Assembly (NCBI RefSeq): GCF_000189295.2 | Contig: NC_016803.1 | Span: forward strand, 2,430,001-2,462,000 | Reading direction: 5' to 3' | Origin: Pseudodesulfovibrio mercurii | GTDB lineage: Bacteria > Desulfobacterota > Desulfovibrionia > Desulfovibrionales > Desulfovibrionaceae | Length of the DNA stretch: 32,000 bases | Part shown: piece by piece, positions 8,373-25,435 of the stretch | Layout of the letters: every line of letters begins with the position of its first letter | Position numbering within the stretch: the stretch's first letter is position 1 | Program-made: the position numbers and the translations under genes | The notes under the pieces: model-generated | Seen by the model: the letters and a program-made list of their open reading frames with translations, nothing else | Told to the model about the DNA's origin: nothing | Databases searched by the model: none

Positions 8373-8448
8373 GGGTCGTTAACTCAGTTGGTAGAGTATC
8401 TGCCTTTTAAGCAGAGAGTCACTGGTTCGAGCCCAGTACGACCCACCA
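8373..8448 (+). tRNA. tRNA-Lys (anticodon UUU)
   Basis: 76 nt. Acceptor GGGTCGT/ACGACCC, D-loop AGTTGGTAGA, anticodon loop CTTTTAA, T-loop GGTTCGAGCC, encoded CCA. Confidence 0.9.
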
Positions 8449-8454
8449 GAATGC

Positions 8455-8530
8455 GTCCCCATCGTCTAGTGGCCTAGGACTCCGGCCTCTCACGCCGGCA
8501 ACAGGGGTTCAAACCCCCTTGGGGACGCCA
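8455..8530 (+). tRNA. tRNA-Glu (anticodon CUC)
   Basis: 76 nt. Acceptor GTCCCCA/TGGGGAC, anticodon loop CTCTCAC, T-arm AGGGGTTCAAACCCCT, discriminator G plus CCA. It is colinear with E. coli tRNA-Glu as I recall it. Confidence 0.9.
8486..8530 (+). repeat. attL: 45-nt direct repeat (3' half of tRNA-Glu)
   Basis: CCTCTCACGCCGGCAACAGGGGTTCAAACCCCCTTGGGGACGCCA recurs at 28141-28185 with one mismatch (A8501 vs G28156). Confidence 0.85.
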
Positions 8531-10142: not shown

Positions 10143-11102
10143 CTAATAGGAACTGCCCAGATAGGCGTTCGATATGTCACGGCGACCGGGGGAATGCCCT
10201 GCCGCTTCCTCGATGGCGTCTCGCGCTTCGTTGTCGAGCCGGGGCCATTCGTCCCCGACCGTTGCCTGGGCTGCCTCCTGGAACACCTGCACGCTCTCGT
10301 GCTGGTTGGGCGGCTCAAAGCCCGCGTGATTCACATACATTTGATGAAACCTTTCGTGCCGAAGACCGTGCAAGGTTCCTCCGGCATTCTTACCGGCAAG
10401 GCCGTGTTTCCTGGCCGCATAGTCCAGCCGGTGCAGCCAGTTGTCGCCCATGCCCTCGGGCATGAGGTTGTGAATACCCTTCCTGTTGGAGGGGGACACG
10501 TATTCCTCGGCTCGTTCAAGAGCCGCTTCCTGTTGCCGGGACAGACCATGCAGGGTCCGAGGCCTGCCGCCCTTTGTCCCGTACTGAACGAGAAGGCTAT
10601 GGTTTTCCCGGTCCCAATCGTTGGGCAGGTCCAGCTTGGCTGATTCTTCCCGACGCAGCCCGAGCTCATACATCAGCTCGATCTGAGCCGCCGCCCGGCC
10701 GGCATGCCGGAACGACGCGTCGTTCCGCATGCTGGCCAGGGATTCTTTAACCATATCCGGGATGACCGCGCGGGACGCCTGATTGGCGATGGAGCCGCGC
10801 CGCACCCCGAAGGTCGCGTTGCTATTGCTGATATTGTCGTTCTCGTAGGCTCGGCAGACGTGGCGGGCAGCGGTGAAGACTTCGGCAATCCTGCCGTCGC
10901 CCACGCCGTCCGCACGCATGGTATCCGCCACGCTCTGGAAGTGCCTGTTTGTCACCTTGGTCCACTTCTCGACCCCCATGTTCGCCTGGCGCAAAACATC
11001 GACGAAATGGCGGGCCGTCTGGCGGATTCGGTGTTGTTTCGATTTTGGCCCGGACAAGGTTGCCCGGTTCGCCGCAAACTTGAGGCTGTCGGATTTTCCC
11101 AT
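10143..11102 (-). CDS. integrase-domain protein (divergent tyrosine-recombinase-like, Phage_int_SAM_2/Integrase_1-type architecture)
   Basis: 319 aa. The N-terminal helical region resembles plasmid integrase-domain proteins. It contains GGRPRTL and GGTLHGLRHERFH (H-x-L-R-H-like), with C-terminal Tyr residues (SNAYLGSSY). The call is from memory of the family, not from a search. Confidence 0.45.
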   Translation of the reverse strand: MGKSDSLKFAANRATLSGPKSKQHRIRQTARHFVDVLRQANMGVEKWTKVTNRHFQSVADTMRADGVGDGRIAEVFTAARHVCRAYENDNISNSNATFGVRRGSIANQASRAVIPDMVKESLASMRNDASFRHAGRAAAQIELMYELGLRREESAKLDLPNDWDRENHSLLVQYGTKGGRPRTLHGLSRQQEAALERAEEYVSPSNRKGIHNLMPEGMGDNWLHRLDYAARKHGLAGKNAGGTLHGLRHERFHQMYVNHAGFEPPNQHESVQVFQEAAQATVGDEWPRLDNEARDAIEEAAGHSPGRRDISNAYLGSSY

Positions 11103-12073: not shown

Positions 12074-12562
12074 ATGACTGAAGACAGCGTCGTTGACCTC
12101 ACCCCTGTGAAGACTCCGGAACAATTGTTGAAGGAAGAAGTGGGGCTTTATCTGAAGATTGTCCGGGAGACTCAGGGCAAGCCTTTGCGGTGGGTGGCCC
12201 AGAAGTTGGGGGTCTCCAACTCGTTCATATCCCAGATCGAAAAGGGGGACGCTTCGATTCCACTGGATCGGGTACTGGACTTCTCCCTTGCCTATGATCT
12301 TCCTGTGCCGGAGTTCGTTCGAATCGTTCTCGTCACCATGCACAATGACACATATCGAGCGCTGATGAGCATACTGGAGAATGACCCGGAAATGGCTAAT
12401 GCCGCCAACCGTTGCCACACGATTGCAAATCCCAAAGAACGAGCCAAGCGGCGCAAAGTTCTCAACCCTGGGCTGAGTTCAAAATCGCTTCAACGAATGC
12501 GGGAATTCATTTTGGAAAACCAAAAGCCGACGTATGGAAAACCGGTGGCAGGTGACTCGTGA
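12074..12562 (+). CDS. XRE-family HTH regulator (C-protein-like position upstream of a MTase)
   Basis: 162 aa. The HTH reads PLRWVAQKLGVSNSFISQIEKGDASIPLDRVLDF. Its stop overlaps the MTase GTG start (GTGA). Confidence 0.75.
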   Translation: MTEDSVVDLTPVKTPEQLLKEEVGLYLKIVRETQGKPLRWVAQKLGVSNSFISQIEKGDASIPLDRVLDFSLAYDLPVPEFVRIVLVTMHNDTYRALMSILENDPEMANAANRCHTIANPKERAKRRKVLNPGLSSKSLQRMREFILENQKPTYGKPVAGDS

Positions 12563-13287
12563 TTGATCTACGGAAACAAGACCACCTGGGGGTAACCTCG
12601 TCGTCCGATGACGGCGACATCCACAACGATGACGCGTTCCTTTTTTTGGAGAATTGTCCTTCCCACCGGTACGAGGCCATAATCACGGACCCGCCTTTCG
12701 AGATCGGTATCGCTGGCAAGGATTGGGATTGCAAAAAGCTTCGGACCGACGTTCTAGCCTACCAATTCTATCGCGTTCTGAAACCTGGCGGCAATGTCTT
12801 TGTATTCTGCTCGGATTTTCAATTCGGCGATTGGTATCGGGAGCTTTCCCGCTATTTTACCAAGTTGCGCAAGTATGCTTGGTGCAAACCGGATTCGCGA
12901 AGCACCAACAAGGGGATGTTTCAGGAGAGCTTCGAACTCGGGCTGCATGTGTGCTCAGAAAATTCATATTTCGACAAGGAAGGCCGCTATAAAAATTATG
13001 TGGTCGCTGGAAAAACATCAGGGAATGAACGGATGATGCCTGACCCCGATGAGGAATGGTCAACCAAGAAGGGCGAAAAGACCCTTCACCCAACGCAAAA
13101 AAAATTGTCGGTAATCGAAACGCTGGTTACCGCATTGAGCAAAGAAGGCGACACCATTTTTGATCCCTTCGCAGGCACCGGAACGCTCGGGGTCGCAGCC
13201 AAAAATTTGGGTAGAAAATTCGAGATGGTCGAGTACGGCTTCCGAAACCACATCGCTGCATGGGACAGGATTTTAGGGGAAGAGTAA
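12559..13287 (+). CDS. beta-class N6-adenine/N4-cytosine DNA methyltransferase (N6_N4_Mtase type), no adjacent endonuclease
   Basis: 242 aa. Motif IV is ITDPPF (aa 42-47) and the AdoMet motif I FDPFAGTGT lies near the C-terminus, i.e. the IV-then-I order of the beta class. Confidence 0.8.
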   Translation: MIDLRKQDHLGVTSSSDDGDIHNDDAFLFLENCPSHRYEAIITDPPFEIGIAGKDWDCKKLRTDVLAYQFYRVLKPGGNVFVFCSDFQFGDWYRELSRYFTKLRKYAWCKPDSRSTNKGMFQESFELGLHVCSENSYFDKEGRYKNYVVAGKTSGNERMMPDPDEEWSTKKGEKTLHPTQKKLSVIETLVTALSKEGDTIFDPFAGTGTLGVAAKNLGRKFEMVEYGFRNHIAAWDRILGEE

Positions 13288-13309: not shown

Positions 13310-14068
13310 TTAATATTCGAGACGAAGCTCGACTGCCCTATTCAACTTCATCCTAAGATGTTCCCATTTTGGGACGACTCGGGACAACAGGCGATAAAAC
13401 GCTGCCGAGTGGTTCCTGACGCGCAAATGGCAAAGTTCGTGGAAAATCACGTACTCGATGCAATCCTTCGGCGCTGCGACAAGCTCAGGGTTCAGGATGA
13501 TCGTACCGCTATTGGTACAGCTTCCCCAACGTTTTCGCATCCGAAGCATTCGCCACTCCGGAACGGTTTTCACGCCCATCCCGGAAGTTCTCTCCAGGCA
13601 CGATCCCACCAGGGAATGGAAAATCGCATCCGCCCGATCACGAAGCCACGCATCCACCAGTTTCTTGGCCACATCTGCGCCATCCTGGGCCAGGAGGGTC
13701 ACTTCCAGATGCGCTCCTTTGAGCTTGGCTGAACGTTCGTGGCCAACCAACAGCTTCAACCGATATTGCCGTCCCAGATACCTGACTTCCTCGCCGGAGA
13801 CATATCGCCTGGCCGGGATGGCCGGGGGATAAGCCGCGAATATCCTCTGCTGCTTGAGGACCCAAGCTCCCCGGCTTTTTACCTTGGCCGCTATCTCATC
13901 GACAGTTGCCGTCCGAGGCGTATCCGTGACGACGGTACCATCGGGGAAGACATGGATGGCCAAGGTCTTCCTGGTCGCTGGCCGGATGGAGTAATCGATT
14001 CTGGTGGTCCCGTAATGTACGGAACCGCGGGCTGGCAAATCAGGCAAGGTCACGTCTCTTGGCAACAA
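13310..14068 (-). CDS. YgjP/DUF45-type zinc metallopeptidase-like protein (M48-related)
   Basis: 252 aa with HELCHLRVRNHS (HExxH...H). The annotated start is TTG and overlaps the hsdR 3' end by 29 nt; an in-frame GTG at 14053 is an alternative. Confidence 0.7.
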   Translation of the reverse strand: MLPRDVTLPDLPARGSVHYGTTRIDYSIRPATRKTLAIHVFPDGTVVTDTPRTATVDEIAAKVKSRGAWVLKQQRIFAAYPPAIPARRYVSGEEVRYLGRQYRLKLLVGHERSAKLKGAHLEVTLLAQDGADVAKKLVDAWLRDRADAIFHSLVGSCLERTSGMGVKTVPEWRMLRMRKRWGSCTNSGTIILNPELVAAPKDCIEYVIFHELCHLRVRNHSAAFYRLLSRVVPKWEHLRMKLNRAVELRLEY

Positions 14069-17000
14069 GAATCAATTTATCGATGACAGCATCTATCACT
14101 TCGCCGGGAAATGTCACACCGGATGATTCCGAAGCGTCATACAAAACGTCTTCAATATCGTTCTTCATTTCGTTGACAATATCAATATTGTCGCTCCAAT
14201 CCCTGATTTTCCTGGATGTTACGGCGTCGTCTATGGATATCGCCATCTGGGGCAAGGAAGCTTCGGCGATCTGCCCCTCCAGCATTTCCCCCAGGATTCC
14301 GAAGTAAACGGCGGCTTCGTCCTTGCCCTTGAGGGACGGCGGCAGGTTGCCACGTTCCCCCTGTTGCAAGTCATCCAGCAGTCCCCGCATCTTGCCGAGA
14401 TATTCGGCATCGGAAAGCCGGTGCGCACGATGGCTGCTGATGGTTTCGTTGATGATTTCCGACAGACGCTTGAAGAGGACCGGGTCCTCGTCCATTCGGA
14501 CGGTGATCGTTTTCTTCACCCGGGCCGCGATGTGGTCGGCCTTGGCGGCATCCCCCTGGATCAGCTCCAACTGTTGCTCGAAGGCGTCCACGGCAAAGAT
14601 ATCCACCGGGGCGACCACCTCCTGCACGGCATCCGCTCCGATGTGCTTGCTGACCATGTTCTTGAGCTGCTGCTCGTAGGCCGAGTAATCCACGGCCTCG
14701 CCAAACCGACGCTTGACGGCGTTGCGAAGGTTTAGGAAATCCTTCAAATCGGCCTTGTACCGGCGGATCGTCTTTTCGGGCGTATTGTCTAGAAACCGCG
14801 CGCTGCTCAGCGCCAGTTGCAGGGTGTTGGCAAAGAGGCGCAGGGCATCGTAAAACCGCTCCCGGATGTCTTCCGGCTCCAGAGCCAGTTGCATGGCCTC
14901 GATGTCCACCTTGTTCCCGACTTCCTTGAAAATCTCCCAGACATTAGCGTGCCTGGCCTTAAGTTGTTCGATCTCGCCGCTGACGTCGAGAATGGTATTC
15001 TCGATGTCGGCCCGGTCGAACCCTTCCTTTTCCAGGGCGGCATAGGTGTCGATGGCTTCATTCAAGGCCCCGAAGATGCCCCGGTAATCCACAACCAAGC
15101 CGTAATCCTTGCCGTCCCACAAACGGTTCACCCGGGCGATGGCCTGAAGGATGTTGTGCTCCTTGAGGTTCTTGTCCAGGTAAAGGACGCTGTTCCGGGG
15201 CGCGTCGAACCCGGTTAAAAGCTTGTCGATGACGATCAGGATTTCGGGGTCGTCATTGTGGTTGAAGGCGTTGATGATGCTTTCGAGATACTGCTTCTCG
15301 TTGCCATACCGGCGCATCATGTCGTTCCAGAACACCTGCACCTCGGGTATCTTGAATTCATCGGTGGAGGTGTTGCCCTCTCGGCTGTCGGGGGAAGACA
15401 TGACCACGGCCACGGAGACTTCGTCCTGTTCCTCGAAACACCGAAGGTAGGCCAGAGCCGCCGGGCGGCTGGCAACCGCGAACTGGGCTTTCTTGCCGGT
15501 TCCCTTGCAAAACTGCTTGAAATGCTGGGCGATGTCATAAGCGACTTCGGCAATCCGCGACTCGGCGGAAAAGAGCTGCTCGGCCTGCCTGAACTTCTTT
15601 TTGAGGTCGCGTTTCTGCTCGGGAGTCAGCCCTTCGGTAATACGATCAAACCACTTGTCCAGTTCGGCATCGTCCCCGTGCAGTTCGCTCATGCGGCCTT
15701 CGTACCTGAGCGGGGCCACGGCCCGATCCTGGACAGCCTGGTTCATGGTGTACTTGTGGATGAAGCCGCCGAACTGGTCGGCCGTGCTCTTCTCTTTCTT
15801 CAGGAGTGGAGTACCCGTGAAGCCGATATAACAGGCGTTGGGGAAGACCACGCGCATCTTGGCATGGCTCTGGCCGTATTGGCTGCGATGGCTTTCGTCC
15901 ACCAGCACGAAAATGTTCCGGTCCTCGTCCTTGGTGCGCTTGTTGGCCACGGTCTCGAACTTATCGATGATGGTGGTGACGATGGAGGCGCGTTCCCCGG
16001 CAATGAGCTTGAGCAGGTGTTCCCCGGTCCGGGCTTGGACCACGTCCTTGCCGCACGCCTTGAAGGTCTTGGAAATCTGGTTGTCCAGGTCGATGCGGTC
16101 GGTGACGATGACCACCTTGGGATTCTTGATGCGGGGGTCGAGCGCCAGGGCCTTGGCGAGCATGACCATGGTCAGGGACTTGCCCGATCCCGTGGTGTGC
16201 CAGATGACCCCGCCCCGGCGGCGGCTGTCGCCCTTGACGTCGGTGACCCGATCCACCGTGGCCTTGACCGCGAAATATTGCTGGTAGCGGGCGATTTTCT
16301 TGATGCGGCTGTCGTAGATGATGAAACCGTATATGAGTTCCAGGAGCCGCTCCGGGCGCAGGAGGGAATGCAGGGTCTTGTCTTGCGGCGTGGGGGTGCG
16401 ATGCCCGGAAGTGAGGATACGTGTCAGGGCTTCCCGCTGTTCGTCCGTGGCCTCGGCCATGAGCCGGAACCGTTGCGCTTCGGCCAAGGGTGCGTTGACG
16501 ATGGCGTCCAGGGCTTCGTTTTGGCCGTCAGCGTCCTCTTCCTTCCAGATCGACCAGAACTTCGCATCCGTGTCCGTGGTGGCGTACATGGCCCGATTCT
16601 GGCTGATTGAAAGCAATATCTGGCTGTAGATGTACAACTCCGGGATTTCCGTGACCCGCTGGTTGCGCAGGTGCTGGCTGATGCCTTCCTTGATGGCCCC
16701 GCGCTGGTCGGGCCGCTTGCACTCGATGATGGCCACGGGAATGCCGTTGACGAACAGCACGATGTCCGGCCGGCGCACGGCATCGGAATGGCGCCGCTCG
16801 AACTCGAATTCGTCGCACATGTGGTAGACGTTGTTTTCCGGGTGTTCCCAATCGATATATTTCAGGGAATGGCTTTTCACGGACCCGTCGATGGTCTGTT
16901 CCAGGCTGATGCCCAGGGTGAGCAGGTCATAGACCTGTTCGCTGGTGGCGATCAGACTGTCAAACGGCACCTGGGCGATTTCCCGAACGGCACGCGCGAT

Positions 17001-17219
17001 ATTGGCATCCGAAAACTCGTGCCTCTGCCCCTTGAAGGTGATGGAATTCATCTCCCGCAACCGGGCTTCCAACACGTCCAGCAGGACCGGCATGGACTTG
17101 CGTCCCCCACGCATGGCCAGGGCCTTGATGGGCGGAACATATTCGTAACCGAGCTGTTCCAGCAAGATCAGGGCAGGGGCGTGAGATGCGGTGTATTCCT
17201 TGAAATCGATGCTATTCAT
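14040..17219 (-). CDS. hsdR: type I restriction enzyme, R (helicase-nuclease) subunit
   Basis: 1059 aa. Motifs: TGSGKSLTM (Walker A), VLVDESHRSQ (DEAH box variant), GFTGTP, LTGFDAP. The N-terminal nuclease region includes PDIVLFVNGIPVAIIECK. Confidence 0.92.
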   Translation of the reverse strand: MNSIDFKEYTASHAPALILLEQLGYEYVPPIKALAMRGGRKSMPVLLDVLEARLREMNSITFKGQRHEFSDANIARAVREIAQVPFDSLIATSEQVYDLLTLGISLEQTIDGSVKSHSLKYIDWEHPENNVYHMCDEFEFERRHSDAVRRPDIVLFVNGIPVAIIECKRPDQRGAIKEGISQHLRNQRVTEIPELYIYSQILLSISQNRAMYATTDTDAKFWSIWKEEDADGQNEALDAIVNAPLAEAQRFRLMAEATDEQREALTRILTSGHRTPTPQDKTLHSLLRPERLLELIYGFIIYDSRIKKIARYQQYFAVKATVDRVTDVKGDSRRRGGVIWHTTGSGKSLTMVMLAKALALDPRIKNPKVVIVTDRIDLDNQISKTFKACGKDVVQARTGEHLLKLIAGERASIVTTIIDKFETVANKRTKDEDRNIFVLVDESHRSQYGQSHAKMRVVFPNACYIGFTGTPLLKKEKSTADQFGGFIHKYTMNQAVQDRAVAPLRYEGRMSELHGDDAELDKWFDRITEGLTPEQKRDLKKKFRQAEQLFSAESRIAEVAYDIAQHFKQFCKGTGKKAQFAVASRPAALAYLRCFEEQDEVSVAVVMSSPDSREGNTSTDEFKIPEVQVFWNDMMRRYGNEKQYLESIINAFNHNDDPEILIVIDKLLTGFDAPRNSVLYLDKNLKEHNILQAIARVNRLWDGKDYGLVVDYRGIFGALNEAIDTYAALEKEGFDRADIENTILDVSGEIEQLKARHANVWEIFKEVGNKVDIEAMQLALEPEDIRERFYDALRLFANTLQLALSSARFLDNTPEKTIRRYKADLKDFLNLRNAVKRRFGEAVDYSAYEQQLKNMVSKHIGADAVQEVVAPVDIFAVDAFEQQLELIQGDAAKADHIAARVKKTITVRMDEDPVLFKRLSEIINETISSHRAHRLSDAEYLGKMRGLLDDLQQGERGNLPPSLKGKDEAAVYFGILGEMLEGQIAEASLPQMAISIDDAVTSRKIRDWSDNIDIVNEMKNDIEDVLYDASESSGVTFPGEVIDAVIDKLILVAKRRDLA

Positions 17220-17229
17220 TGGTGATCTC

Positions 17230-18702
17230 TCAAGGTTTCGTACACAACGCGTCTATGGTTATCAAATATGCAGGGCTAAACGATTCGAACCCCCATTTTG
17301 GCGGTTCAATTTTCCCGGTGGCAAATTCCCCACACAATTCAACCAAAGGGACTTTAGACTCTACGCCTAACGCCACCTTCATTCTTTCAAAATAAGCCGT
17401 AGATTGGGATCGCGCAAAGACTTCAAAGGGCGCACTCCTGTACCCTATATATAGCAACGAAATAGGGTACCACAGATGTCCCTCTTCTCTGCCGTGAAGA
17501 TAGCTATGCAGATATAAGAAAAAATCTGCCTGCATCAGATGGTAAAAGCTTAAGGACGGGCACATGTCGGCCCGACTTTTTAACATGTCGGCATGAATTG
17601 ATCTCCTATTCAATTCAAGGCGGGCATTTCGCACATCATTGAGCCCCCCGAGATATGGTCGATAGCGAGTGTACGACTTCATAGGGTGTTCATTGGAGCT
17701 AAGCCGACCGACGAAATAGAAATCCTGTACCAATTCGGGAACCACTTCAAAGCGTTCTTCCTTCAAGGCAATGGCAACGGCGCATAAGAACAACTCATGA
17801 AGAAAAAATCGGTAATTGTCGGCAGCAATTTCCACCCATTGATGCCTTCCGTCATCGGGCCACTGGGTAAACGGATAAAGCCTTTCAATGAACCGACGAA
17901 GAGTCTCTCCAGCCTGCTGAGCAGGGACATATCGAATTAAGGTTGCGAAAAATTCAACCAATTCGTTTTTGGGTTCTTCCAGCATCTCGATGCTCCGCAC
18001 CAAGCGATCGTCCAGTTCCCCATCACCTTCAGGCTCAACCCGAAAACGCTCAAGGTTCTCGATAACCGTATCGAAATAGTCCCTGCAGGCCCCAAGAGCA
18101 TTTGCTTTCCCAGATTGAAGCGCCGTCATGGCAGCTCGTTGCTTCGAGGTACTTCCGAGAGTGATTTCTTCGTCACTAAGAATATACGCAGGCGGTTTTC
18201 CCAATTCCGGCTTTTTAAAAACCGGCTTGTTGAAGATCGCCCGTAGCAACTGTTCAAATCCCTTCTCAAACAAATCAGGGGTGGACATATCGATATAACT
18301 TCTACCAGAAAGAAATATCGGGCAGCACGCGTGGCCCTGTTCATCCCGTTCCATTATAATCGGGATATATCTTTGATCCTTGCTTGCGGGATCTGTTTGA
18401 CCGTAAATCTCCGGGGTGATGATAAGCGTTTCCGTTCCAACCCCGCCTTTGCGGCTATCGGCTTTCTCCGCATAGGCTTTGTCACAGAGCATAAGGACCT
18501 TGGAAATATTAGCGTCCGCCCTCATCTGCTCCATGTATTTGTTGACGTCCGCACCTTCTACAAGGTCCCATTTATCCAGCACAACATCGACGCCCATCTC
18601 GACAAGCCGCTCCGCAAGAGCAACGACTTGTGATTCGTAATCGGGGGTTGTCCAGCTATAGGAAATAAACACTTTGGGGACGGAATTTTCGATATTGCTC
18701 AT
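17230..18702 (-). CDS. TIR-like (SEFIR/TIR_2-type) N-terminal domain fused to an unrecognised ~330-aa helical C-terminal domain
   Basis: 490 aa. The N-terminus KVFISYSW..D..QVVALAERLVEMGVDVVLDKWDL..GADVNKYMEQ...KVLMLCD..Y..KADSRKGGVGTE matches the bacterial TIR-like pattern as I recall it. I could not assign residues ~170-490. The stop is 10 bp before the hsdR ATG. Confidence 0.65.
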   Translation of the reverse strand: MSNIENSVPKVFISYSWTTPDYESQVVALAERLVEMGVDVVLDKWDLVEGADVNKYMEQMRADANISKVLMLCDKAYAEKADSRKGGVGTETLIITPEIYGQTDPASKDQRYIPIIMERDEQGHACCPIFLSGRSYIDMSTPDLFEKGFEQLLRAIFNKPVFKKPELGKPPAYILSDEEITLGSTSKQRAAMTALQSGKANALGACRDYFDTVIENLERFRVEPEGDGELDDRLVRSIEMLEEPKNELVEFFATLIRYVPAQQAGETLRRFIERLYPFTQWPDDGRHQWVEIAADNYRFFLHELFLCAVAIALKEERFEVVPELVQDFYFVGRLSSNEHPMKSYTRYRPYLGGLNDVRNARLELNRRSIHADMLKSRADMCPSLSFYHLMQADFFLYLHSYLHGREEGHLWYPISLLYIGYRSAPFEVFARSQSTAYFERMKVALGVESKVPLVELCGEFATGKIEPPKWGFESFSPAYLITIDALCTKP

Positions 18703-18759
18703 GCTTGCACCGTATTGTTATAAACGAGGCCGGGAAGGAGGCCCTCCCGGCCATTCATT
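18703..18759 (-). other. GC hairpin between the 104-aa gene and the TIR-like gene
   Basis: Minus strand: GGCCGGGA-GGGCCTCCT-TCCCGGCC (8-bp stem) followed by TCGTTTATAA. The T tract is weak, so it could be a partial terminator or a processing/stability element. Confidence 0.35.
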
Positions 18760-19074
18760 CTATCGTTCTCCACAGGCCGGGTTATATTTCGCTCGAATAG
18801 CCTGTTCGATTTCTTTACGCCCGGCTTGCTGCTTGTTCGGGGTGTAGTGAGGGGCACATCCCAATATCCCCCGGCTGTGACGGCTCCAACACCCAGCACG
18901 ATCGTGAGTTTCGACACGAGACTTAAGTCCTTTCGATTCTCCAACATCCAGAACTGTCCATTTCTCGGTCGCATCTTTGCGCGTCAGGATCGTATATACC
19001 CCCGAGCGGTCTTCTAGATCATCAGTCGAGGTGTATGGTCCCTCCGCTGGGTAGCCTGCAATAGTTATAGACAT
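18760..19074 (-). CDS. small GIY-YIG-like protein (tentative)
   Basis: 104 aa. SGVYTIL...WTVLDVGES..LKSRVETHDR...KEIEQAIRAKYNP follows the GIY...YIG...R...E...N spacing. An AAGGGA RBS lies 5 nt upstream of the ATG. Confidence 0.4.
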   Translation of the reverse strand: MSITIAGYPAEGPYTSTDDLEDRSGVYTILTRKDATEKWTVLDVGESKGLKSRVETHDRAGCWSRHSRGILGCAPHYTPNKQQAGRKEIEQAIRAKYNPACGER

Positions 19075-19272
19075 GTTTTTCCCTTAAACAGATGAATGAG
19101 CCGTCTTGAACTATACCGGACCATTATGTATGCTCCGCGCACGCTTATGGCGGAGGTCCGATGAACCTGCAACGGCTCGTGTTCGAGCAGGTTGACCTCA
19201 AGGGCGGTCTGATGGTTCCAGCATCAGGCCGCTTTTCTTGTGGACTTCAATCATTTCCCTTCTCCTAGCCTG

Positions 19273-19500
19273 CTACCCTTTGGGCGGGTATGGGTCGTTG
19301 CCGTAGCTGTTTTTTTCACGGATTCTTCCATCCTTTCCGTGAATGCTGACCTCAAGACCTTCCCGTTTCCCCTGGTCAATGGCTCGTTCCCGAGCTTCGG
19401 CCTGGGTTTCGGCTTTGAAGGAAGCGCGCTTTGCGCCGCCTTTCTTGCCTTGCCAGCCACCATCAGGATGGGGCGTGACATGCATGTCTTTACCGCTCAT
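19273..19500 (-). CDS. DUF2188-family small protein
   Basis: HVTPHPDGGWQGKKGGAKRASFKAETQAEARERAI...EVSIHGKDGRIREKNSYGNDP fits the DUF2188 pattern. An AGGAGGTG RBS lies 6 nt before the ATG at 19500, so the GTG at 19509 falls inside the RBS. Confidence 0.7.
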   Translation of the reverse strand: MSGKDMHVTPHPDGGWQGKKGGAKRASFKAETQAEARERAIDQGKREGLEVSIHGKDGRIREKNSYGNDPYPPKG

Positions 19501-19549
19501 TCGTATCACCTCCTTTGGTGCTCATTTCCCGGTTGCCCGGATGCGAAAA

Positions 19550-20374
19550 TTACAATTTCTTTGCCGCCCAGTATGCCGCCACCTTATCGATGATGGCATG
19601 GGCTACCTTGTCCATGTGCTTGCCTTTCGAGTAGTCCGCCGGGGCCACATAATGAACCCGGCCTTCGCTCCTCAGTTGCTCGGCAAGCTCCTTCGAAGTC
19701 TTCGGTTTATAGACAGCGATGGAGTGTCCCCCCTGCGCCTTGACAAGCCGCATACACGGGACATCCGTCGCCCCATCGCCGATGAAAATCATATTGGTGA
19801 ACGGCACTTCCCGCTGATCGGACTCGATATACTGGTTGATCTTCTTGTTGTCGCAGATATCCCGAACCCCTTTGTTAATCCGAAACAGGAACTGCGTCTT
19901 GGTCGTATAGTTGACGGCAAGCCCTGGGGCCTCGGCGACGCCATGCTGGTCGTACATGAACGACGAAGCGAACACATCGGTAAATTTGTTGGCAATGCTC
20001 GTTCCCAAAAGCATTTCCCGTATGCCGGAGGAGATGATGTAATGTTGGGGAATCAGCCCTTTTTCTTTGGCGTAGTCGTCAACTCGGTCAAACCATCCCG
20101 AGACCCCGGGAAACATCTCGATTCTCTTGGCGTATTGTTTGAAGTCCTGCCGCGTGACCCTCATGTCGTTTTCTTTGGCCTTTCGAAGCATCAGATACAT
20201 GTAGGCAAGAATTTCATCTGCCTGCTGATCCTTGGCGCGCCTTTTCACCTCATTCCAGAACGTTTTACTGGTCAGCTTGAGTTTCGGGATGAAGTCGTAT
20301 TCCTGCATATTCCCGGGGGCAAGCGTGCCGTCGAAGTCGTAGACAAATGCAATTCTCTGTTTGCGAAAGCTCAT
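19550..20374 (-). CDS. HAD-superfamily hydrolase/phosphatase
   Basis: 274 aa. Motif I is FVYDFDGTL (D13, D15), motif II IISSG, and motif IV FIGDGATDVPCM. Confidence 0.75.
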   Translation of the reverse strand: MSFRKQRIAFVYDFDGTLAPGNMQEYDFIPKLKLTSKTFWNEVKRRAKDQQADEILAYMYLMLRKAKENDMRVTRQDFKQYAKRIEMFPGVSGWFDRVDDYAKEKGLIPQHYIISSGIREMLLGTSIANKFTDVFASSFMYDQHGVAEAPGLAVNYTTKTQFLFRINKGVRDICDNKKINQYIESDQREVPFTNMIFIGDGATDVPCMRLVKAQGGHSIAVYKPKTSKELAEQLRSEGRVHYVAPADYSKGKHMDKVAHAIIDKVAAYWAAKKL

Positions 20375-20418
20375 GCGGCCCCCTTCAGAATTGTTTTTAG
20401 ATTTTTTCTAGACTTCAA

Positions 20419-20447
20419 AATATACTCTCTCCGGTCCCCGAAGCCAA
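20419..20447 (-). promoter_or_regulatory. sigma70-like promoter for the HAD gene
   Basis: Minus strand: -35 TTGGCT, 17-nt spacer, -10 TATATT. It lies in the 130-bp AT-rich gap after hsdS. Confidence 0.4.
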
Positions 20448-20503
20448 GCCTTCACGCCGCGTGCTCGCAACTATCTTTTATAGTTAATTTTAATTTGCAC
20501 GCG

Positions 20504-21721
20504 TTATGATTTTACTCGCACTTTTCCGGTCAATAATTGCTGCATGAGGCCCTTTTTCTGTTCCTTGAGGGCGGCGAGCTGGTTGCGGTGCTCGTCTATT
20601 TCCGCGACGGCGGCATTGAGGACTTTGGCGATGGCCTCTTGTTCCCTGGGTGGTGGGCACGGGACGTTGATCTTGAAAAAATCCTTCTTGTTCAGATTCA
20701 AAAGACCGTCGGAACGGGCTCCGCTTGTGATGTACCGCTTCAATTCCCTGGCGTGGTAATCGGCGATGAAGAAATGTTCATAGAAATCGGCCGAGACTTG
20801 ATCGGACTTGGGGCGGAAACTGATAAAGACGTTCGGGACGGAAATCTCGTCCTGATCGCGCAAAAGGTAGGCGCAGCCGCATTGGTATTTCTTCGAGTTG
20901 CCCTTGTTGTAGGCAAACTCGCCTTTCCGCAAATGGGTGTAGTTGGCATATTGCCGACCGGCGATGTCCTTGCCCCATTTTTCGCGCTGGGAGACAAAAC
21001 CGATTCCGGCGGAAATGCTGTAGGGGGGGATATCCTTGTCCCCAACGGTATCTGCGACCGGTTCGAACAAAGTGCCCAAGGGAACTTCCTTCCACGCTTC
21101 CCCGGCAAATTCCCCGAACCGAACCTTGCCCGTCAGAAGTCGCTGCATGAGACCCGTTTTCCGTCGCTCCTTGGCCTTGATGAGGGCCTCGGCCTTCTCG
21201 ATGGCGCGGTCCCAGGTGGACAAGATGGTGGCAATGGCCTTTTGTTCTTGTTCTTTGGGAAAAACGAACAAGCAGTTTCGTATATCTGCCAAGGACAGAT
21301 TAGGACGCGCAGAATCTGACTGGATACCCAAAAGCATCCTAACCGTACTTGGAAGTTGGAGATACAGTGAGAAAAAGCGGACATTATAGCCTTTTTTCAA
21401 TCTCAACAAACAAACGGCCTGATTGATGTTCGCAGGGACACCGTTGTTCTCATATATACAACTACGGCCAATAGAAGCTCCCACAATATTTATGAGAATA
21501 TCTCCATCAGCCAAGCGACTGTTCTTCATCTTTTCGCCAAACTCGTCCGGCAAGAACTTTGGCCTAGAAATATCCAAAAAGCCGTCCCTCACATTTTCGC
21601 TTGTGACGAACAAAATCCCATTCTCTTGGTACTCGAAGCCTTGCCACTTCGGGGAGGCTCCCTTGGTAATCTTATCCGCTATCTCCACACCTTTTGCTTT
21701 CTGCCACCCTTCAGGAATCAT
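20504..21721 (-). CDS. hsdS: type I R-M specificity subunit (two target-recognition domains)
   Basis: 405 aa. The conserved spacer region is duplicated (KTGLMQRLLTGKVR and KKGLMQQLLTGKVRV), as is the EQ.AIA motif (EQEQKAIATIL, REQEAIAKVL). Confidence 0.9.
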   Translation of the reverse strand: MIPEGWQKAKGVEIADKITKGASPKWQGFEYQENGILFVTSENVRDGFLDISRPKFLPDEFGEKMKNSRLADGDILINIVGASIGRSCIYENNGVPANINQAVCLLRLKKGYNVRFFSLYLQLPSTVRMLLGIQSDSARPNLSLADIRNCLFVFPKEQEQKAIATILSTWDRAIEKAEALIKAKERRKTGLMQRLLTGKVRFGEFAGEAWKEVPLGTLFEPVADTVGDKDIPPYSISAGIGFVSQREKWGKDIAGRQYANYTHLRKGEFAYNKGNSKKYQCGCAYLLRDQDEISVPNVFISFRPKSDQVSADFYEHFFIADYHARELKRYITSGARSDGLLNLNKKDFFKINVPCPPPREQEAIAKVLNAAVAEIDEHRNQLAALKEQKKGLMQQLLTGKVRVKS

Positions 21722-21993
21722 TCCCCACCATCCTTCTTCGCCCCAAGCGCCTTCTTCTCCGCAGCCTTCACGCGCCGGGCGACCTTCGCCAGGTCCTCAT
21801 CCGGCACGGGCAGTTCCTCGGGCATGGTTCCGCCCAGCTCCTTGATGGTCTGGCGGACCTTCTTGCCGACCTCGAAATGGGTCTGGTTGGCCGTTTGTTT
21901 GCCCCGGAGATTCTCTCGCCGGAGCTTCTCCTCGGTCTGCGTGGCTCGGAACAGGTTGGCAGCGAGCTCGGTGATATTTTTTTCAACCATCAT
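21718..21993 (-). CDS. DinD C-terminal-like small protein (91 aa)
   Basis: TQTEEKLRRENLRGKQTANQTHFEVGKKVRQTIKELGGTMPEELP resembles only the C-terminal third of DinD/Bro-type proteins. It has ATGA overlaps with both neighbouring genes. Confidence 0.55.
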   Translation of the reverse strand: MMVEKNITELAANLFRATQTEEKLRRENLRGKQTANQTHFEVGKKVRQTIKELGGTMPEELPVPDEDLAKVARRVKAAEKKALGAKKDGGE

Positions 21994-23015
21994 TCCCCAC
22001 CTTCCTTCTTTGCCTCGATCGCCTTCACCGCCTTGTCAAAGTCCGATTCGATACGCTGGGTCGCGTTGAACTTCTCGTACTCGGCACGGGCCTTGGCATC
22101 GGCCTGCTTGCGGGAGATGGAGCCGTAGCCTTCCAGCACCTTGTACTCGTTGAATTCCAGGAAACGGTTCACGCTGTCGGCAAAGGCCCTCATGGTGAAC
22201 GTGGTGCGGCTTTCGATGATCCGCTCAATGTAATCGAAAAAGCTGGATACCGTCCGTTCCAGTTGCTTGATCTCGTCCTCGGCCAGATAATTCTTCCCGA
22301 CCTTGGTGTCCGACAACAGAACCCGGCCATCCGGGGCGTTCTTGTAGGTTTGCAAACCCATCCTCGGCTTGTCGGCGTCGGCCCGTTGATGGATCAGCTC
22401 GCTTGAAGTCTGCCCGGTGATGGCAAAGTGAAACTTGTCCTGCACATGGGCATAAAACAGATGCGCTTCCTCGGAATTCTTGTCGTAATCCTCGCTGCAC
22501 TCGGCAAAGATGTCGGTGATCTGTTGGTAAATGCGCCGCTCGCTGGCCCGGATCGACCGGACCCGCTCCAACAATTCCCGGAAATAGTCCTTGCCGAAAT
22601 AGCGGCCATTCTTGAGCCGCTCGTCGTCCAGCACGAACCCCTTGACGATGAACTCCCTGAGCCGTTCGGTGGCCCAGATACGGAACTGGGTGGCCTTGGA
22701 CGAGTTCACCCGGTAACCGACGGAGATGATGGCATCCAAATTGTAGTATTTTGTCTTGTAATTCTTGCCGTCTGCGGCAGTTGTTTCCAAAACGGAAACA
22801 ACTGAATCCTCGGCCAATTCTCCGCTTTCAAATATGTTGGCAAGATGCTTGGAAACGGCCGGGACACCGACTCCGAATAGCTCGGCGATCCGCTTTTGCG
22901 GCAGCCAGATATTCTCGTTGTGCAGGAAGACCTCAACGGCCACCTTGCCGCCCGGGGCGGTATACAGCAGGAATTCCGTGGTCTGATCCATGGGGGTCAG
23001 GCTTTTTTCACTCAT
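21990..23015 (-). CDS. RhuM-family protein
   Basis: 341 aa. The hallmarks are WLPQKRIAELFGV...HLANIFESGEL, YYNLDAIISVGYRVNSSKATQFRIWATERLREFIVKGFVLDDERLKNG. It has an ATGA overlap with hsdM. Confidence 0.85.
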   Translation of the reverse strand: MSEKSLTPMDQTTEFLLYTAPGGKVAVEVFLHNENIWLPQKRIAELFGVGVPAVSKHLANIFESGELAEDSVVSVLETTAADGKNYKTKYYNLDAIISVGYRVNSSKATQFRIWATERLREFIVKGFVLDDERLKNGRYFGKDYFRELLERVRSIRASERRIYQQITDIFAECSEDYDKNSEEAHLFYAHVQDKFHFAITGQTSSELIHQRADADKPRMGLQTYKNAPDGRVLLSDTKVGKNYLAEDEIKQLERTVSSFFDYIERIIESRTTFTMRAFADSVNRFLEFNEYKVLEGYGSISRKQADAKARAEYEKFNATQRIESDFDKAVKAIEAKKEGGE

Positions 23016-24520
23016 CGCAGCACCCCCAGCTCTTCCAGGTATCCGGCCATTTCCTTGCGGACTTCGACCAACTCCTTTTCCAGTTCCTCGATTTCGCCCT
23101 GCACCTTGGCGATGTCCACTTCTTCCTCTTCCTCGAAGGTGTCCACATAGCGGGGGATGTTCAGGTTGAAATCGTTCTCCTTGAGTTCATCGAACCCGGC
23201 CACATAGGCGTACTTGTCCACGAACTCGCGGGCCTTGTACGTGTCCACGATCTTCCGGACATTCTCGGGACGCAGCTTGTTCTGATTCTTGGCGTCGGCG
23301 TATTCCCGGCTGGCGTCGATGAACAGGACATCCTTGTCGGGCCGGTTGCGCTTGAACACCAAGATGGCCGCCGGGATGCCCGTGCCAAAGAACAGGTTCG
23401 CGGGCAGGCCGATGACCGCGTCCAGAAGGTTTTCCTCGATGAGTTGCTGCCGGATCTTGCCTTCCGCGCCACCCCGGAAAAGAACACCGTGCGGCACGAC
23501 CACGCCGACCCGCCCGGATTCCAGAGTGGTGGTCTCGATCATGTGCGAGATGAAAGCGTAATCCGCCTTGGACTTGGGCGGCAGGCCGCGGTGGAACCGA
23601 TTATGCGGATCGCTCTGGGCCGACTTGTAGCCCCACTTGTCGAGGGAGAAGGGCGGATTGGCCACGACCACCTCGAACTTCATGGTGGTGTCGTCCTCGA
23701 TCAGCTTGGGTTCACGCAGGGTGTCGCCCCATTCGACCCTGGCCCGGTCCATGCCGTGCAGAAACATGTTCATCTTGGCGAGCGCCCAGGTCTCTCCGTT
23801 GATCTCCTGCCCGTACAGGGAAAAATCCTCGGACGTCCAGCGAACCCGATTGCCGCACTTGATGAGCAACGAGCCCGAACCGCAGGCGGGATCGCAGATG
23901 CGCTCGCCCGGCTGGGGGGCGACCAGTTCCGCGATCAGCTCCGAGACCTCCGGCGGCGTGTAGAATTCCCCGGCCTTCTTGCCCGCGCCGGCGGCGAAGT
24001 TGGCGATGAGGTATTCATAGGCATTGCCGATGACATCCAGGTTGCCCACCCGCGACGGGCGCAGGTCCAGGCGAGGATCATTGAGGTCCTCCAGAAACTT
24101 CTTCAGACGACGGTTACGGTCCTTGGTCTTGCCGAGATTCGCCTCGGAATTGTAATCGATATTGCGGAAGACACCCTGCAACTTGGCACGGTTCGCGTCT
24201 TCAATCTTCTCAAAGGTGGTGTTGATGACCTCGCCCACATTGGTGGCGTTGCGCTGGTCGTAAAGGTCATAGAAGGTGCACCCTTCCGGCATGACGAAAC
24301 GCTCCCTGGCCAGACGGCGTCCGATGCGCTCCTTGTCACCCTTGAACTGCTGGCTCAACTCGTCATACCGCTCCCGGTAAACGTCCGAGAGATACTTCAC
24401 GAAAAGCATCGCCAGGATATAATCCTTGTACTGGCTGGCGTTGAGGATTCCCCGGAAGGTGTCGCACGCCTTGAAAAGGATATCATTGATCTCTTTCTGG
24501 TTCACTTTGGTGGTGGTCAT
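23012..24520 (-). CDS. hsdM: type I R-M DNA methyltransferase subunit
   Basis: 502 aa. HsdM_N-like N-terminus (YKDYILAMLFVKYLSD), AdoMet motif DPACGSGSLL, and catalytic VVANPPF. Confidence 0.92.
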   Translation of the reverse strand: MTTTKVNQKEINDILFKACDTFRGILNASQYKDYILAMLFVKYLSDVYRERYDELSQQFKGDKERIGRRLARERFVMPEGCTFYDLYDQRNATNVGEVINTTFEKIEDANRAKLQGVFRNIDYNSEANLGKTKDRNRRLKKFLEDLNDPRLDLRPSRVGNLDVIGNAYEYLIANFAAGAGKKAGEFYTPPEVSELIAELVAPQPGERICDPACGSGSLLIKCGNRVRWTSEDFSLYGQEINGETWALAKMNMFLHGMDRARVEWGDTLREPKLIEDDTTMKFEVVVANPPFSLDKWGYKSAQSDPHNRFHRGLPPKSKADYAFISHMIETTTLESGRVGVVVPHGVLFRGGAEGKIRQQLIEENLLDAVIGLPANLFFGTGIPAAILVFKRNRPDKDVLFIDASREYADAKNQNKLRPENVRKIVDTYKAREFVDKYAYVAGFDELKENDFNLNIPRYVDTFEEEEEVDIAKVQGEIEELEKELVEVRKEMAGYLEELGVLR

Positions 24521-24530
24521 ATATTCTCCG

Positions 24531-25151
24531 TTATTTTTTCTCTTGCGATGCGGCGTCCAATATCTCGGACAACAACAATTCCCGTTGCTCCACGATCCGT
24601 TCCGTCAAAATTTTTTCTTGCAAACCACACTGGTAGACCTTGGCTATCAGCGCTTGCCTTTCGAGAGACGGCACCGGAACCGGAAGCGCCTCCAACGTCT
24701 TTCGGGTGATATGCGGCAAGGCCGTCCCGGCCGCGCACTGCCCATAATATCGCTGGGCCTGCTTGCCGTTCAGGAACCAGGCCAGATAATCCGGGCGAAC
24801 CAACGCGGGGTTGGCCTTGATAATGAAAAAATGCGGTGCGGCCACGGCTTTTTCAAGCGGCTTGTCGACCAGCGCTCCGAAAAAACGCATCCCGCGGTTT
24901 ACGAAAAGGATATCCCCTTCCTCCAGAAATGTCGGGCGGCGGCGCCCAGTCGGTACGACTTTGGGCAACCGCTTCTCGTTCACGCCCAGAACAGGGTCCA
25001 CATTCTTGAGCTGGACCACGGATATCGTACCTTCCGGATCGTGTTCAATCCTGCCCCGGAACGGATGCCCGGCGAACAATTTCGCCACGCGCTTCAAGGG
25101 AGCCGATTGGCATTTTGAATGCACCAAGCTTTTTGTTTTTTCTCGAATCAT
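24531..25151 (-). CDS. half-size (single-TRD) type I specificity subunit
   Basis: 206 aa from the ATG at 25151. PLKRVAKLFAGHPF... forms one variable domain, followed by ITRKTLEALPVPVPSLERQALIAKV and a helical tail. The upstream 56 codons of the 25319 ORF look non-coding. It ends 10 bp before hsdM. Confidence 0.6.
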   Translation of the reverse strand: MIREKTKSLVHSKCQSAPLKRVAKLFAGHPFRGRIEHDPEGTISVVQLKNVDPVLGVNEKRLPKVVPTGRRRPTFLEEGDILFVNRGMRFFGALVDKPLEKAVAAPHFFIIKANPALVRPDYLAWFLNGKQAQRYYGQCAAGTALPHITRKTLEALPVPVPSLERQALIAKVYQCGLQEKILTERIVEQRELLLSEILDAASQEKK

Positions 25152-25435
25152 GTGTTTCGATATAAGCAAGCGGGACCAGCTCGTCAAGTGCAGTTTGCAT
25201 TTTGATGCAAAAAATATTTTGGATACACTTTGGGGTACTGATCGCCGCCCCCATATCCCAGTTTGAAGCGTTAACCTATTGGCCGTTTTGCCGCGCAACA
25301 GCACTGGGGCTCCCAACATCTCTGGACTTGTTTTCCACCCCAGAAATATTTCTAACCTCTTGCCGCCCCCTCCCTAGTGAACGACCTTTTCACTTGGGCA
25401 ACGCTCTTTCCATTTTCAACTTGCACAGTCGCAAA

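Follow-up and report, generated by a model that had tools for sequence, protein, structure and literature searches.

A predicted bSEFIR abortive-infection gene embedded in a type I restriction-modification operon of Pseudodesulfovibrio mercurii

A gene with a TIR-like N terminus that lies directly upstream of hsdR in a type I restriction-modification (R-M) operon of Pseudodesulfovibrio mercurii raises the question of whether it represents a new kind of suicide effector controlled by its own restriction complex or a known defence gene that is embedded in the operon. The gene is located in a 32,000-nt stretch of contig NC_016803.1 (positions 2,430,001 to 2,462,000 of the forward strand), which is referred to here as the window. 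An initial annotation, made from the sequence alone, had proposed an undescribed R-M-coupled abortive-infection effector, possibly a guard of its own R-M complex in the manner of the anticodon nuclease PrrC, with an autonomous single-gene TIR defence as the fallback. The results presented here indicate that it is very probably a canonical bSEFIR gene, encoding an autonomous NAD+-depleting abortive-infection protein, and place the fallback essentially on target.

The SEFIR gene and its operon

The reading frame encodes 490 amino acids on the same strand as the R-M genes, as initially described, and is genuine rather than a chance reading frame, because the protein is 100% identical to the NCBI entry “SEFIR domain protein [Pseudodesulfovibrio mercurii]” (ND132) and has more than 1,291 homologues (E ≤ 1e-5) in many phyla; full-length homologues of ~480 amino acids number more than 1,200. 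A search of the protein against NCBIfam returned no model. The stop codon (TGA, 17230–17232) is followed after 10 nt (GAGATCACCA) by the start codon of hsdR (ATG at 17219). Because of this short spacer and because a scan for terminator-like sites found none between the two genes, they are almost certainly co-transcribed, in agreement with the initial annotation. The SEFIR gene would share its transcript with both hsdR and ygjP and is probably translationally coupled.

On the minus strand, the genes run hsdM-rhuM-hsdS-cargo-SEFIR-hsdR; they are part of a tRNA-linked, low-GC defence island (Table 1). The stretch between hsdS and the SEFIR gene is not empty but contains three more minus-strand genes, encoding a 274-aa HAD-like protein, a 78-aa DUF2188 protein, and a 104-aa product, together with a hairpin. 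The hairpin (RNA fold –31 kcal/mol, z –3.1) is located 25 nt upstream of the SEFIR start codon and is the strongest terminator-like site in 13 kb; a second copy was not found within the window, which identifies it as a non-repeated element. It may act as a terminator or an attenuator on the boundary of the cargo cassette that lies upstream. The total numbers of promoter- and terminator-like sites did not exceed the shuffled expectation.

Two other open reading frames in this stretch were rejected. A 91-aa frame (18699–18974), whose stop codon overlaps the SEFIR start codon (ATGA), was treated as probably spurious because it overlaps the more protein-like 104-aa frame and crosses the hairpin; it had no match in Pfam, PADLOC, or NCBIfam. 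The same databases gave no match for a 388-aa frame on the plus strand (19343–20509) in the gap between hsdS and SEFIR, whose junk-like translation marks it as antisense noise, and which was dropped in favour of the HAD-like gene on the opposite strand. The gene remnant downstream of rhuM matches the NCBIfam model DinD only with its C-terminal 80 residues and aligns to the 3′ part of an intact 291-aa Bro-N gene in a related locus (L082).

Table 1. Features of the SEFIR gene and the surrounding operon; coordinates refer to the window.
Feature	Coordinates	Strand	Evidence
YgjP-like metallopeptidase gene, overlaps 3′ end of hsdR	13310..14068	-	Pfam YgjP-like, 1.8e-51
hsdR, type I restriction subunit, 1059 aa	14040..17219	-	Pfam HSDR_N, SWI2_SNF2, T1R_D3-like, T1RH-like_C; PADLOC REase_I, 3e-224
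10-nt spacer, SEFIR stop to hsdR ATG	17220..17229	-	Sequence
bSEFIR gene, probable single-gene NAD+-depleting anti-phage system	17230..18702	-	ORF, 490 aa, ATG start; PADLOC; BLASTP
Family-specific all-helical C-terminal domain, aa 170–490, presumed sensor/regulatory	17233..18195	-	AF2, alignment
N-terminal SEFIR domain, aa 9–166, predicted NADase	18205..18678	-	Pfam, PDB 5y8e, alignment
Stem-loop, 11 bp, 9 G-C	18728..18752	-	Between 104-aa ORF and SEFIR ATG
104-aa ORF, weak PDC-S14 similarity, variable cargo	18760..19074	-	PADLOC PDC-S14, 3e-5; no Pfam match
DUF2188 gene, 78 aa, PADLOC candidate PDC-S16, variable cargo	19273..19509	-	Pfam DUF2188, 3.5e-21; PDC-S16, 6.5e-31
HAD-like hydrolase gene, 274 aa, PADLOC candidate PDC-S34, variable cargo	19550..20374	-	Pfam HAD, 1.8e-15; PDC-S34, 4e-121
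hsdS, specificity subunit, 405 aa	20504..21721	-	Pfam Methylase_S; PADLOC Specificity_I, 2.8e-89
91-aa remnant, C-terminal part of Bro-N/DinD-like gene (PDC-S13)	21718..21993	-	PDC-S13, 2.8e-33
RhuM-family gene, 341 aa, PDC-S05, between hsdM and hsdS	21990..23015	-	Pfam Virulence_RhuM, 1.7e-100; PDC-S05, 3e-146
hsdM, methyltransferase subunit, 502 aa	23012..24520	-	Pfam HsdM_N and N6_Mtase, 4e-109
Half-HsdS-like gene, 262 aa, operon head	24531..25319	-	Pfam Methylase_S, 4.9e-5; PADLOC Specificity_I, 1.3e-18

Domain architecture and family membership

The motifs FISYSW (aa 12–17), GVDVVLDKWDL (aa 37–47), and GGVGTE (aa 86–91), from which a TIR/SEFIR-like N terminus had been deduced, are all present where they had been placed, and several lines of evidence assign this domain to the SEFIR/TIR superfamily. 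The Pfam match to SEFIR (PF08357; 61.8 bits, E = 1.2e-16, aa 9–119) exceeds that to TIR_2 (PF13676; 52.7 bits, E = 7.6e-14, aa 11–153), and the crystal structure solved for a B. cereus SEFIR domain (5y8e) is matched by the N-terminal sequence in PDB (E = 8.7e-31) and is also the best Foldseek match of the structural model; structural matches to the TIR proteins PdTIR, BtTir, and SPARTA are weak (E > 0.1). An alignment of 40 diverse homologues revealed that D43 and E91 are invariant, and the P. mercurii copy has retained all 46 family-invariant residues, these two included. The AF2 model has low confidence at the GGVGTE loop (pLDDT < 50, aa 85–91). The likely catalytic residue is E91, within this invariant loop.

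Full-length comparisons place the protein in the bSEFIR family. It matches the PADLOC bSEFIR profile (PDLC03957) over aa 3–488 with an E value of 5e-102, and BLASTP aligned it with the experimentally verified SEFIR protein of Bacillus sp. NIO-1130 (38% identity, E = 2e-79; first 399 of its 468 residues used, residues 6–395 of these aligned), colinear over aa 9–415. The homology to this protein as well as to the bSEFIR profile therefore includes the C-terminal domain, and the conserved aspartate that defence requires (D40 of the Bacillus protein) and the glutamate of the GGVG[TD]E loop (E88) correspond to D43 and E91. The family was originally delimited by a SEFIR match stronger than the TIR match (Millman et al., 2022), which is also the case here. 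Moreover, Table S6 of the same study lists a Sefir gene on the minus strand (OID 2503787033) for Desulfovibrio desulfuricans ND132, which is identical with Pseudodesulfovibrio mercurii. A full-length match to a named defence family is the finding that the initial annotation had itself set against its claim of an undescribed architecture, and this claim therefore fails; standard tools (PADLOC, DefenseFinder) would label the gene as SEFIR.

The C-terminal domain is predicted by AF2 with high confidence (pLDDT mostly > 90), and it carries residues that are invariant across phyla (e.g., E273, D295, E303, R358, R361, Q391, D393, and W411). The observation that this part of the protein lacks a recognized domain stands insofar as its 321 residues had no Pfam match even at E ≤ 10; searches of PDB with sequence profiles and of PDB and BFVD with Foldseek yielded nothing significant. 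It does not hold at the level of the family, because the domain is covered by the bSEFIR profile and is colinear with the verified protein up to aa 415. The fold and trigger of this conserved domain are a question for the entire family rather than for the P. mercurii locus; a literature search found no paper on the trigger of bSEFIR.

The function of the family is documented for its verified member. In B. subtilis, this protein confers protection against phage phi29 by itself, and the D40A mutation abolishes the effect (Millman et al., 2022). According to the literature, SEFIR acting alone causes bulk depletion of NAD+, with ADP-ribose and nicotinamide as products; infection-triggered NAD+ depletion and phage protection are known for the verified Bacillus protein only. 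The P. mercurii protein has the same two-domain architecture (490 vs. 468 aa) and does not differ from it in kind; its specific setting is a sulfate-reducing deltaproteobacterium and a type I R-M operon, whereas the tests of the verified copy were made with the gene on its own. The flanking regions of 70–80 homologues are heterogeneous and contain no recurrent neighbour family, as expected of a system without an obligatory partner gene. Because the SEFIR family is already described and the embedding of defence genes in R-M operons is a known habit, the gene does not represent a novel type of suicide system coupled to restriction.

Linkage to type I R-M operons

Type I R-M genes were tabulated within the available flanks of 160 sampled loci and were present near SEFIR in only 7 of them (2 of 80 genome loci and 5 of 80 metagenome loci). 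The position of SEFIR in these loci varies (before hsdM, between hsdM and hsdS, or after hsdS), and the linked copies are scattered rather than monophyletic, with closest relatives that are not linked to R-M genes (e.g., L140 vs. L126, 91% identity). HsdR was absent among the downstream genes of 70 homologues. A location downstream of hsdS occurs also in three independent lineages (L009, L118, and L136), one of which (L136) carries a ThsA-ThsB pair as a separate system beside its distant SEFIR homologue. R-M linkage in the bSEFIR family is sporadic.

The order hsdS-(cargo)-SEFIR-hsdR is kept only in a small clade of proteins with at least 68% identity, which comprises the P. mercurii copy and two relatives with 86% (L081) and 69% (L085) identity. 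The P. mercurii protein and that of L081 are 85–86% identical, encoded by ~92% identical DNA without frameshift; the spacer between SEFIR and hsdR is also 10 nt long in L081, albeit with another sequence, and 42 nt in L085. In L081, a Kiwa system takes the place of the HAD-like and DUF2188 genes, with kwaB ending 2 nt before SEFIR and the hairpin of P. mercurii absent. The shared segments of the two operons have ~93% DNA identity, and the N-terminal recognition domains of their HsdS differ. In L085, the N terminus of HsdR is only 34% identical to that of P. mercurii. The ygjP gene follows hsdR also in L082, and the half-HsdS-like gene at the operon head is conserved in both L081 and L082.

Within this clade, SEFIR belongs to the conserved backbone, immediately before hsdR, and the cargo beside it is swapped. 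The adjacency is steadier than expected for a random cargo position, which could hint at a functional tie to hsdR. A metagenome scan with the single SEFIR protein found no close relatives; a scan with the clade alignment recovered only distant relatives (32–48% identity), which were fed into the context statistics and did not enlarge the R-M-embedded clade. A copy from Dethiosulfatarculus (L001; 60% identity) is broken into three frames beside remnants of RhuM and hsdS genes.

Proposed mechanism and alternative readings

On the model of the verified family member, the helical C-terminal domain would keep the SEFIR protein inactive and answer a cue of phage infection. Once triggered, the SEFIR domain may self-associate via a surface that includes D43 and would cleave NAD+ to ADP-ribose and nicotinamide, probably with E91 in catalysis; the loss of NAD+ would starve the infected cell and stop the replication of the phage. 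The embedding in the R-M operon would then provide co-expression and co-transfer of complementary defences, without mechanistic dependence on the R-M complex. NADase activity and autonomy are documented in the literature on the family, and we infer that the P. mercurii copy is active.

A guard arrangement, in which the surrounding type I R-M complex would hold the SEFIR protein inactive, appears quite improbable. The gene occupies the same slot between hsdS and hsdR as prrC in EcoprrI, both encode suicide-type effectors, and the close junction with hsdR would suit such a role. The persistence of the SEFIR-hsdR adjacency in both relatives, despite exchanged cargo, a different HsdS recognition domain, and a strongly diverged HsdR N terminus, is consistent with it, as is the location downstream of hsdS in the three independent lineages. 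However, PrrC, which combines an N-terminal ABC-ATPase with a C-terminal anticodon (tRNA) nuclease, occurs almost solely within type I R-M loci, whereas bSEFIR proteins are NADases that mostly stand alone, even as closest relatives of R-M-linked copies, with the few linked copies in variable positions. Neither Pfam nor PADLOC detected an ABC-ATPase or other PrrC-like module in the P. mercurii protein, and PADLOC gave no match to PrrC or RloC. Moreover, the verified member works without an R-M partner, and the P. mercurii copy's C-terminal domain has the invariant residues of stand-alone copies and no extra domain specific to its clade. The guard function initially proposed is therefore left without specific support. 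The same low probability applies to a version restricted to the clade, in which SEFIR would be tied to HsdR as a fail-safe that sets off NAD+ depletion once a phage anti-restriction protein blocks HsdR or the R-M complex; if true, such an NADase counterpart of PrrC would carry this paradigm over to NAD+ depletion.

It is even less probable that the gene is an inactive passenger, either non-functional or encoding only a protein-protein interaction module. The broken copy of Dethiosulfatarculus indicates that SEFIR copies of the clade can decay, and generic interaction roles for bacterial SEFIR domains were suggested before 2022 in an earlier structural paper. The P. mercurii frame, however, is intact and full-length, and both the complete set of invariant residues and the absence of frameshifts relative to L081 argue against decay. 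SEFIR domains belong to the TIR superfamily, some members of which make signals, such as the TIR protein ThsB of Thoeris. A SEFIR domain that makes a nucleotide second messenger for another protein of the operon, such as the HAD-like or RhuM protein, is the least probable of these readings, although several uncharacterized candidate defence genes are present in the operon. Domain and defence-profile searches found no ThsA/SLOG/Macro protein, cyclase, or Argonaute partner in the window, as the initial annotation had noted, and SEFIR does not keep the same partners in the operon, as illustrated by the Kiwa system of L081; the bulk NAD+ depletion described for SEFIR alone also speaks against this reading. 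TIR NADases and signal generators (Thoeris ThsB, the TIR effectors of CBASS and Pycsar, and SPARTA) share the superfamily fold with SEFIR and, according to the literature, the glycosidic cleavage of NAD+. The P. mercurii protein differs from them by its best match to SEFIR and by a C-terminal domain of its own in place of a partner-supplied sensor; the pairing with a ThsA-type (SIR2/Macro-SLOG) effector that characterizes Thoeris is absent from the window.

The interpretation as an autonomous bSEFIR protein agrees with what is known of embedded defence genes. Independent defence genes are embedded in type I R-M, BREX, DISARM, and Hma loci (“guilt by embedding”; Payne et al., 2024), and TgvAB, which is embedded in the type I R-M locus of VPI-2 of V. 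cholerae, acts without HsdR activity. The P. mercurii locus likewise nests a known system beside the candidates PDC-S05 (RhuM), PDC-S13, PDC-S16, and PDC-S34; SEFIR is absent from the main text of the 2024 preprint. It is distinguished by the place of SEFIR in the conserved backbone of a small clade, with swapping in the slot next to it. The locus neatly exemplifies a type I R-M operon acting as a platform for several defence cassettes, which are exchanged at fixed slots: SEFIR, RhuM, HAD-like, and DUF2188 genes in P. mercurii versus Kiwa and a Bro-N gene in the relative with ~93% DNA identity.

Membership in the bSEFIR family

The product of the SEFIR gene matches the PADLOC bSEFIR profile (PDLC03957) over aa 3-488 (E 5e-102) and is colinear over aa 9-415 with the Bacillus sp. 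NIO-1130 SEFIR protein, whose role in defence is verified (38% identity, E 2e-79; BLASTP against the first 399 of its 468 residues, as given in the supplementary data of Millman et al. 2022). Besides the SEFIR domain, the alignment spans most of the C-terminal domain that had been called "unknown"; D43 aligns with D40 of the verified protein, whose mutation abolishes defence, and E91, which closes the GGVGTE motif, aligns with E88 in GGVGDE. The NCBI entry "SEFIR domain protein" of Pseudodesulfovibrio mercurii has the identical sequence (100%). Table S6 of Millman et al. (2022) assigns a single minus-strand Sefir gene to Desulfovibrio desulfuricans ND132, the former name of the strain with the identical protein; the gene was almost certainly already catalogued by the discoverers of the family. 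Because it matches a named defence family over its full length, it is not the undescribed effector proposed in the initial annotation but a known feature.

The ORF itself is as that annotation described it (coordinates, strand, 490 aa, ATG start, 10-nt gap to hsdR), and the motifs FISYSW, GVDVVLDKWDL and GGVGTE with E91 lie at the positions it gave. It correctly recognised a defence effector of the TIR superfamily that shares a transcript with hsdR: Pfam reports both SEFIR (PF08357, 1.2e-16, aa 9-119) and the lower-scoring TIR_2 (PF13676, 7.6e-14), the SEFIR stop codon (TGA) is separated from the hsdR ATG only by the 10-nt spacer GAGATCACCA, and a scan for terminator-like sites found none between the two genes. 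The C-terminal 321 residues, in which it had recognised no domain, likewise gave no Pfam match even at E<=10.

With a threshold of E<=1e-5, a word-indexed search returned at least 1,291 homologous proteins. Query coverage is 90-100% for each of the best 120 and 98-100% for nearly all of them; most have a length of ~474-500 aa, and their sources span many phyla, among them Vibrio, Yersinia, Pseudomonas, Clostridium and Planctomycetes. An alignment of 40 sequences contains 46 invariant columns across both domains, including D43-K44-W45, G87-V88-G89 and E91 in the N-terminal domain and E273, D295, E303, R358, R361, Q391, D393 and W411 in the C-terminal domain. The N-terminal domain matches the crystal structure of a B. 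cereus SEFIR domain (5y8e) by sequence (E 8.7e-31), and 5y8e is also the best Foldseek match of the AlphaFold2 model (mean pLDDT 82). The C-terminal domain, predicted to be all-helical with pLDDT mostly >90, has no significant match among PDB sequences, PDB folds (Foldseek) or BFVD, and is presumably the family's own sensing domain.

Operon structure and genomic island

In PADLOC, the hsdR product is recognised by the type I REase profile (3e-224). The SEFIR ATG is preceded, at a distance of 25 nt, by a strong, unique hairpin that is followed by TCGTTTAT. This hairpin may terminate or attenuate the transcript running from hsdM through the cargo genes, in which case SEFIR, hsdR and ygjP would be transcribed separately or by read-through. 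Between the hairpin and the ATG sits a TATAAC hexamer. The three genes embedded between hsdS and SEFIR match PADLOC "phage defence candidates" (PDC profiles). The gene directly upstream of hsdM, which may encode a half-size specificity subunit or be a remnant, is kept in the 86%-identical relative (L081/L082; called there with 206 and 212 aa), and ygjP follows hsdR also in L082.

Features of the island in the window
Feature	Position	Strand	Remarks
tRNA-Lys(ttt)/tRNA-Glu(ctc)	8373-8530		
Tyrosine-integrase-like gene	8616-9701	-	
Tyrosine-integrase-like gene	10143-11102	-	
HTH_3/HTH_31 gene and N6_N4 DNA methyltransferase gene	12074-13287	+	convergent with ygjP
YgjP-like (DUF45/SprT-like) metallopeptidase gene	13310-14068	-	overlaps final 29 nt of hsdR
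hsdR	14040-17219	-	1059 aa; HSDR_N, SWI2_SNF2, T1R_D3-like, T1RH-like_C (Pfam)
SEFIR ORF	17230-18702	-	490 aa, ATG start
Hairpin	18752-18728	-	11 bp, G+C-rich, -31 kcal/mol, z -3.1
104-aa ORF	18760-19074	-	weak PDC-S14 match, 3e-5 (PADLOC)
DUF2188 gene	19273-19509	-	PDC-S16, 6.5e-31 (PADLOC)
HAD-like gene	19550-20374	-	PDC-S34, 4e-121 (PADLOC)
hsdS	20504-21721	-	
Bro-N/DinD-like gene, C-terminal remnant	21718-21993	-	PDC-S13, 91 aa
RhuM gene	21990-23015	-	PDC-S05
hsdM	23012-24520	-	
Half-HsdS-like gene	24531-25319	-	262 aa, single HsdS-like recognition domain
HipA-type toxin kinase gene	25849-27099	+	divergent from R-M operon
238-aa ORF	27205-27921	-	

The whole R-M/SEFIR block is located on a tRNA-linked genomic island, which starts just behind the two tRNA genes and the two integrase-like genes and is flanked on both sides by housekeeping genes. 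The GC content falls from ~0.66 to 0.49-0.61 until ~27.9 kb, compared with 0.65-0.70 in the flanks. The hipA gene marks the other end of the island; L081/L082 likewise carry HipA and an adjacent HTH gene. The 238-aa ORF at the island edge lies in a stretch with a GC content of 0.43 and has no match in Pfam or PADLOC. An HTH_3/HTH_31 gene runs into the start of the methyltransferase gene; because no cognate nuclease was found among the ORFs scanned, this methylase is possibly orphan or controller-regulated. A diverged copy occupies the same position in L082. The window encodes no ThsA, cyclase or Argonaute.

Cassette exchange among close relatives

Relatives with at least 68% identity keep the SEFIR-hsdR arrangement. 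In the 86% relative, represented by four contigs, the order is hsdM, Bro-N gene, hsdS, KwaA, KwaB, SEFIR, 10-nt spacer, hsdR, YgjP; the 69% relative has RhuM, hsdS, SEFIR, 42-nt spacer, hsdR, with an HsdR N-terminus just 34% identical to that of the window. In Dethiosulfatarculus sandiegensis (L001, 1133-3407), a 60%-identical SEFIR pseudogene, split over three frames, adjoins RhuM and hsdS fragments without hsdR and represents a decayed form of the same module. The SEFIR gene of a 49% relative lies outside any R-M operon.

The window and the 86% relative share a backbone of 92-94% identical DNA (27000-23012, 21973-21716, 21225-20510 and 18679-13303), whose last segment comprises SEFIR, hsdR and ygjP. 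Comparison of the exchange zone (18680-23011) with L081/L082 revealed three swaps: RhuM in place of the Bro-N part of the DinD-like gene, of which the 91-aa remnant is left; a different first recognition domain of hsdS; and the HAD-like gene, DUF2188 gene and 104-aa ORF in place of KwaA-KwaB (Kiwa). SEFIR therefore behaves as backbone in this lineage, and the slot immediately upstream as a cargo site. The locus is a type I R-M operon with cassette exchange at fixed slots.

Autonomous defence or guard of the R-M complex

Across the family, linkage to R-M genes is sparse. Iterated HMM searches seeded with HsdM, HsdS and HsdR of the window detected type I R-M genes no further than 8 kb from SEFIR in only two of 80 species-representative genome loci, ordered hsdM-hsdS-x-x-SEFIR before a contig end (L009) and SEFIR-x-hsdM-hsdS-hsdR (L033). 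The 70 downstream neighbours of SEFIR homologues represent 88 different families in a Pfam scan; each listed family occurs in at most three members, and HsdR domains are absent among the 25 most frequent ones listed. A second set of 80 loci came from metagenomes (32-48% identity; the median locus is only 6 kb long). Five of these loci carry same-strand type I R-M genes, with SEFIR immediately behind hsdS (L118), between hsdM and hsdS (L119), ahead of hsdM (L140), downstream of hsdM (L154), or behind hsdM/hsdS and a Thoeris ThsA-ThsB pair (L136). In L136 (5887-9284), a distant SEFIR homologue immediately follows ThsA (SIR2-STALD) and ThsB (TIR), so that two NAD+-related defences are stacked in one R-M operon. 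The total of 7 among 160 sampled loci is probably well above the level of a random gene, as for a defence-island gene, but far below the near-exclusive R-M embedding reported for the anticodon nuclease PrrC.

The R-M-linked copies are mutually only 31-59% identical, except the L136/L140 pair (77%), and each has nearer relatives without R-M linkage in the sampled flanks; L140, for example, shares 91% identity with L126, which has no R-M gene within 8 kb on each side. Therefore, the linkage arose repeatedly and is facultative, and the link to hsdR is not a property of the SEFIR family.

The PrrC-like position of SEFIR and the stability of its junction with hsdR in the close clade would agree with the earlier proposal that it guards the surrounding R-M complex, but this is very improbable, given that the family's R-M linkage is sporadic, polyphyletic and variable in position, that embedded and stand-alone copies share identical invariant C-terminal residues, that PrrC-like domains are absent, and that the verified family member works autonomously, protecting B. 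subtilis from phi29 on its own. According to the literature on the family, SEFIR cleaves NAD+ to ADP-ribose and nicotinamide; a literature search for its trigger found no paper. We consider it highly likely that the window protein, too, is an autonomous bSEFIR defence. Such embedding is an already described, general phenomenon: type I R-M, BREX and DISARM operons frequently host embedded, independently acting defence genes, and TgvAB, in the type I R-M cluster of V. cholerae VPI-2, defends without HsdR activity. The SEFIR gene of P. mercurii belongs to a named family that has been validated experimentally and in which it is catalogued, and its genomic arrangement is of a known type.
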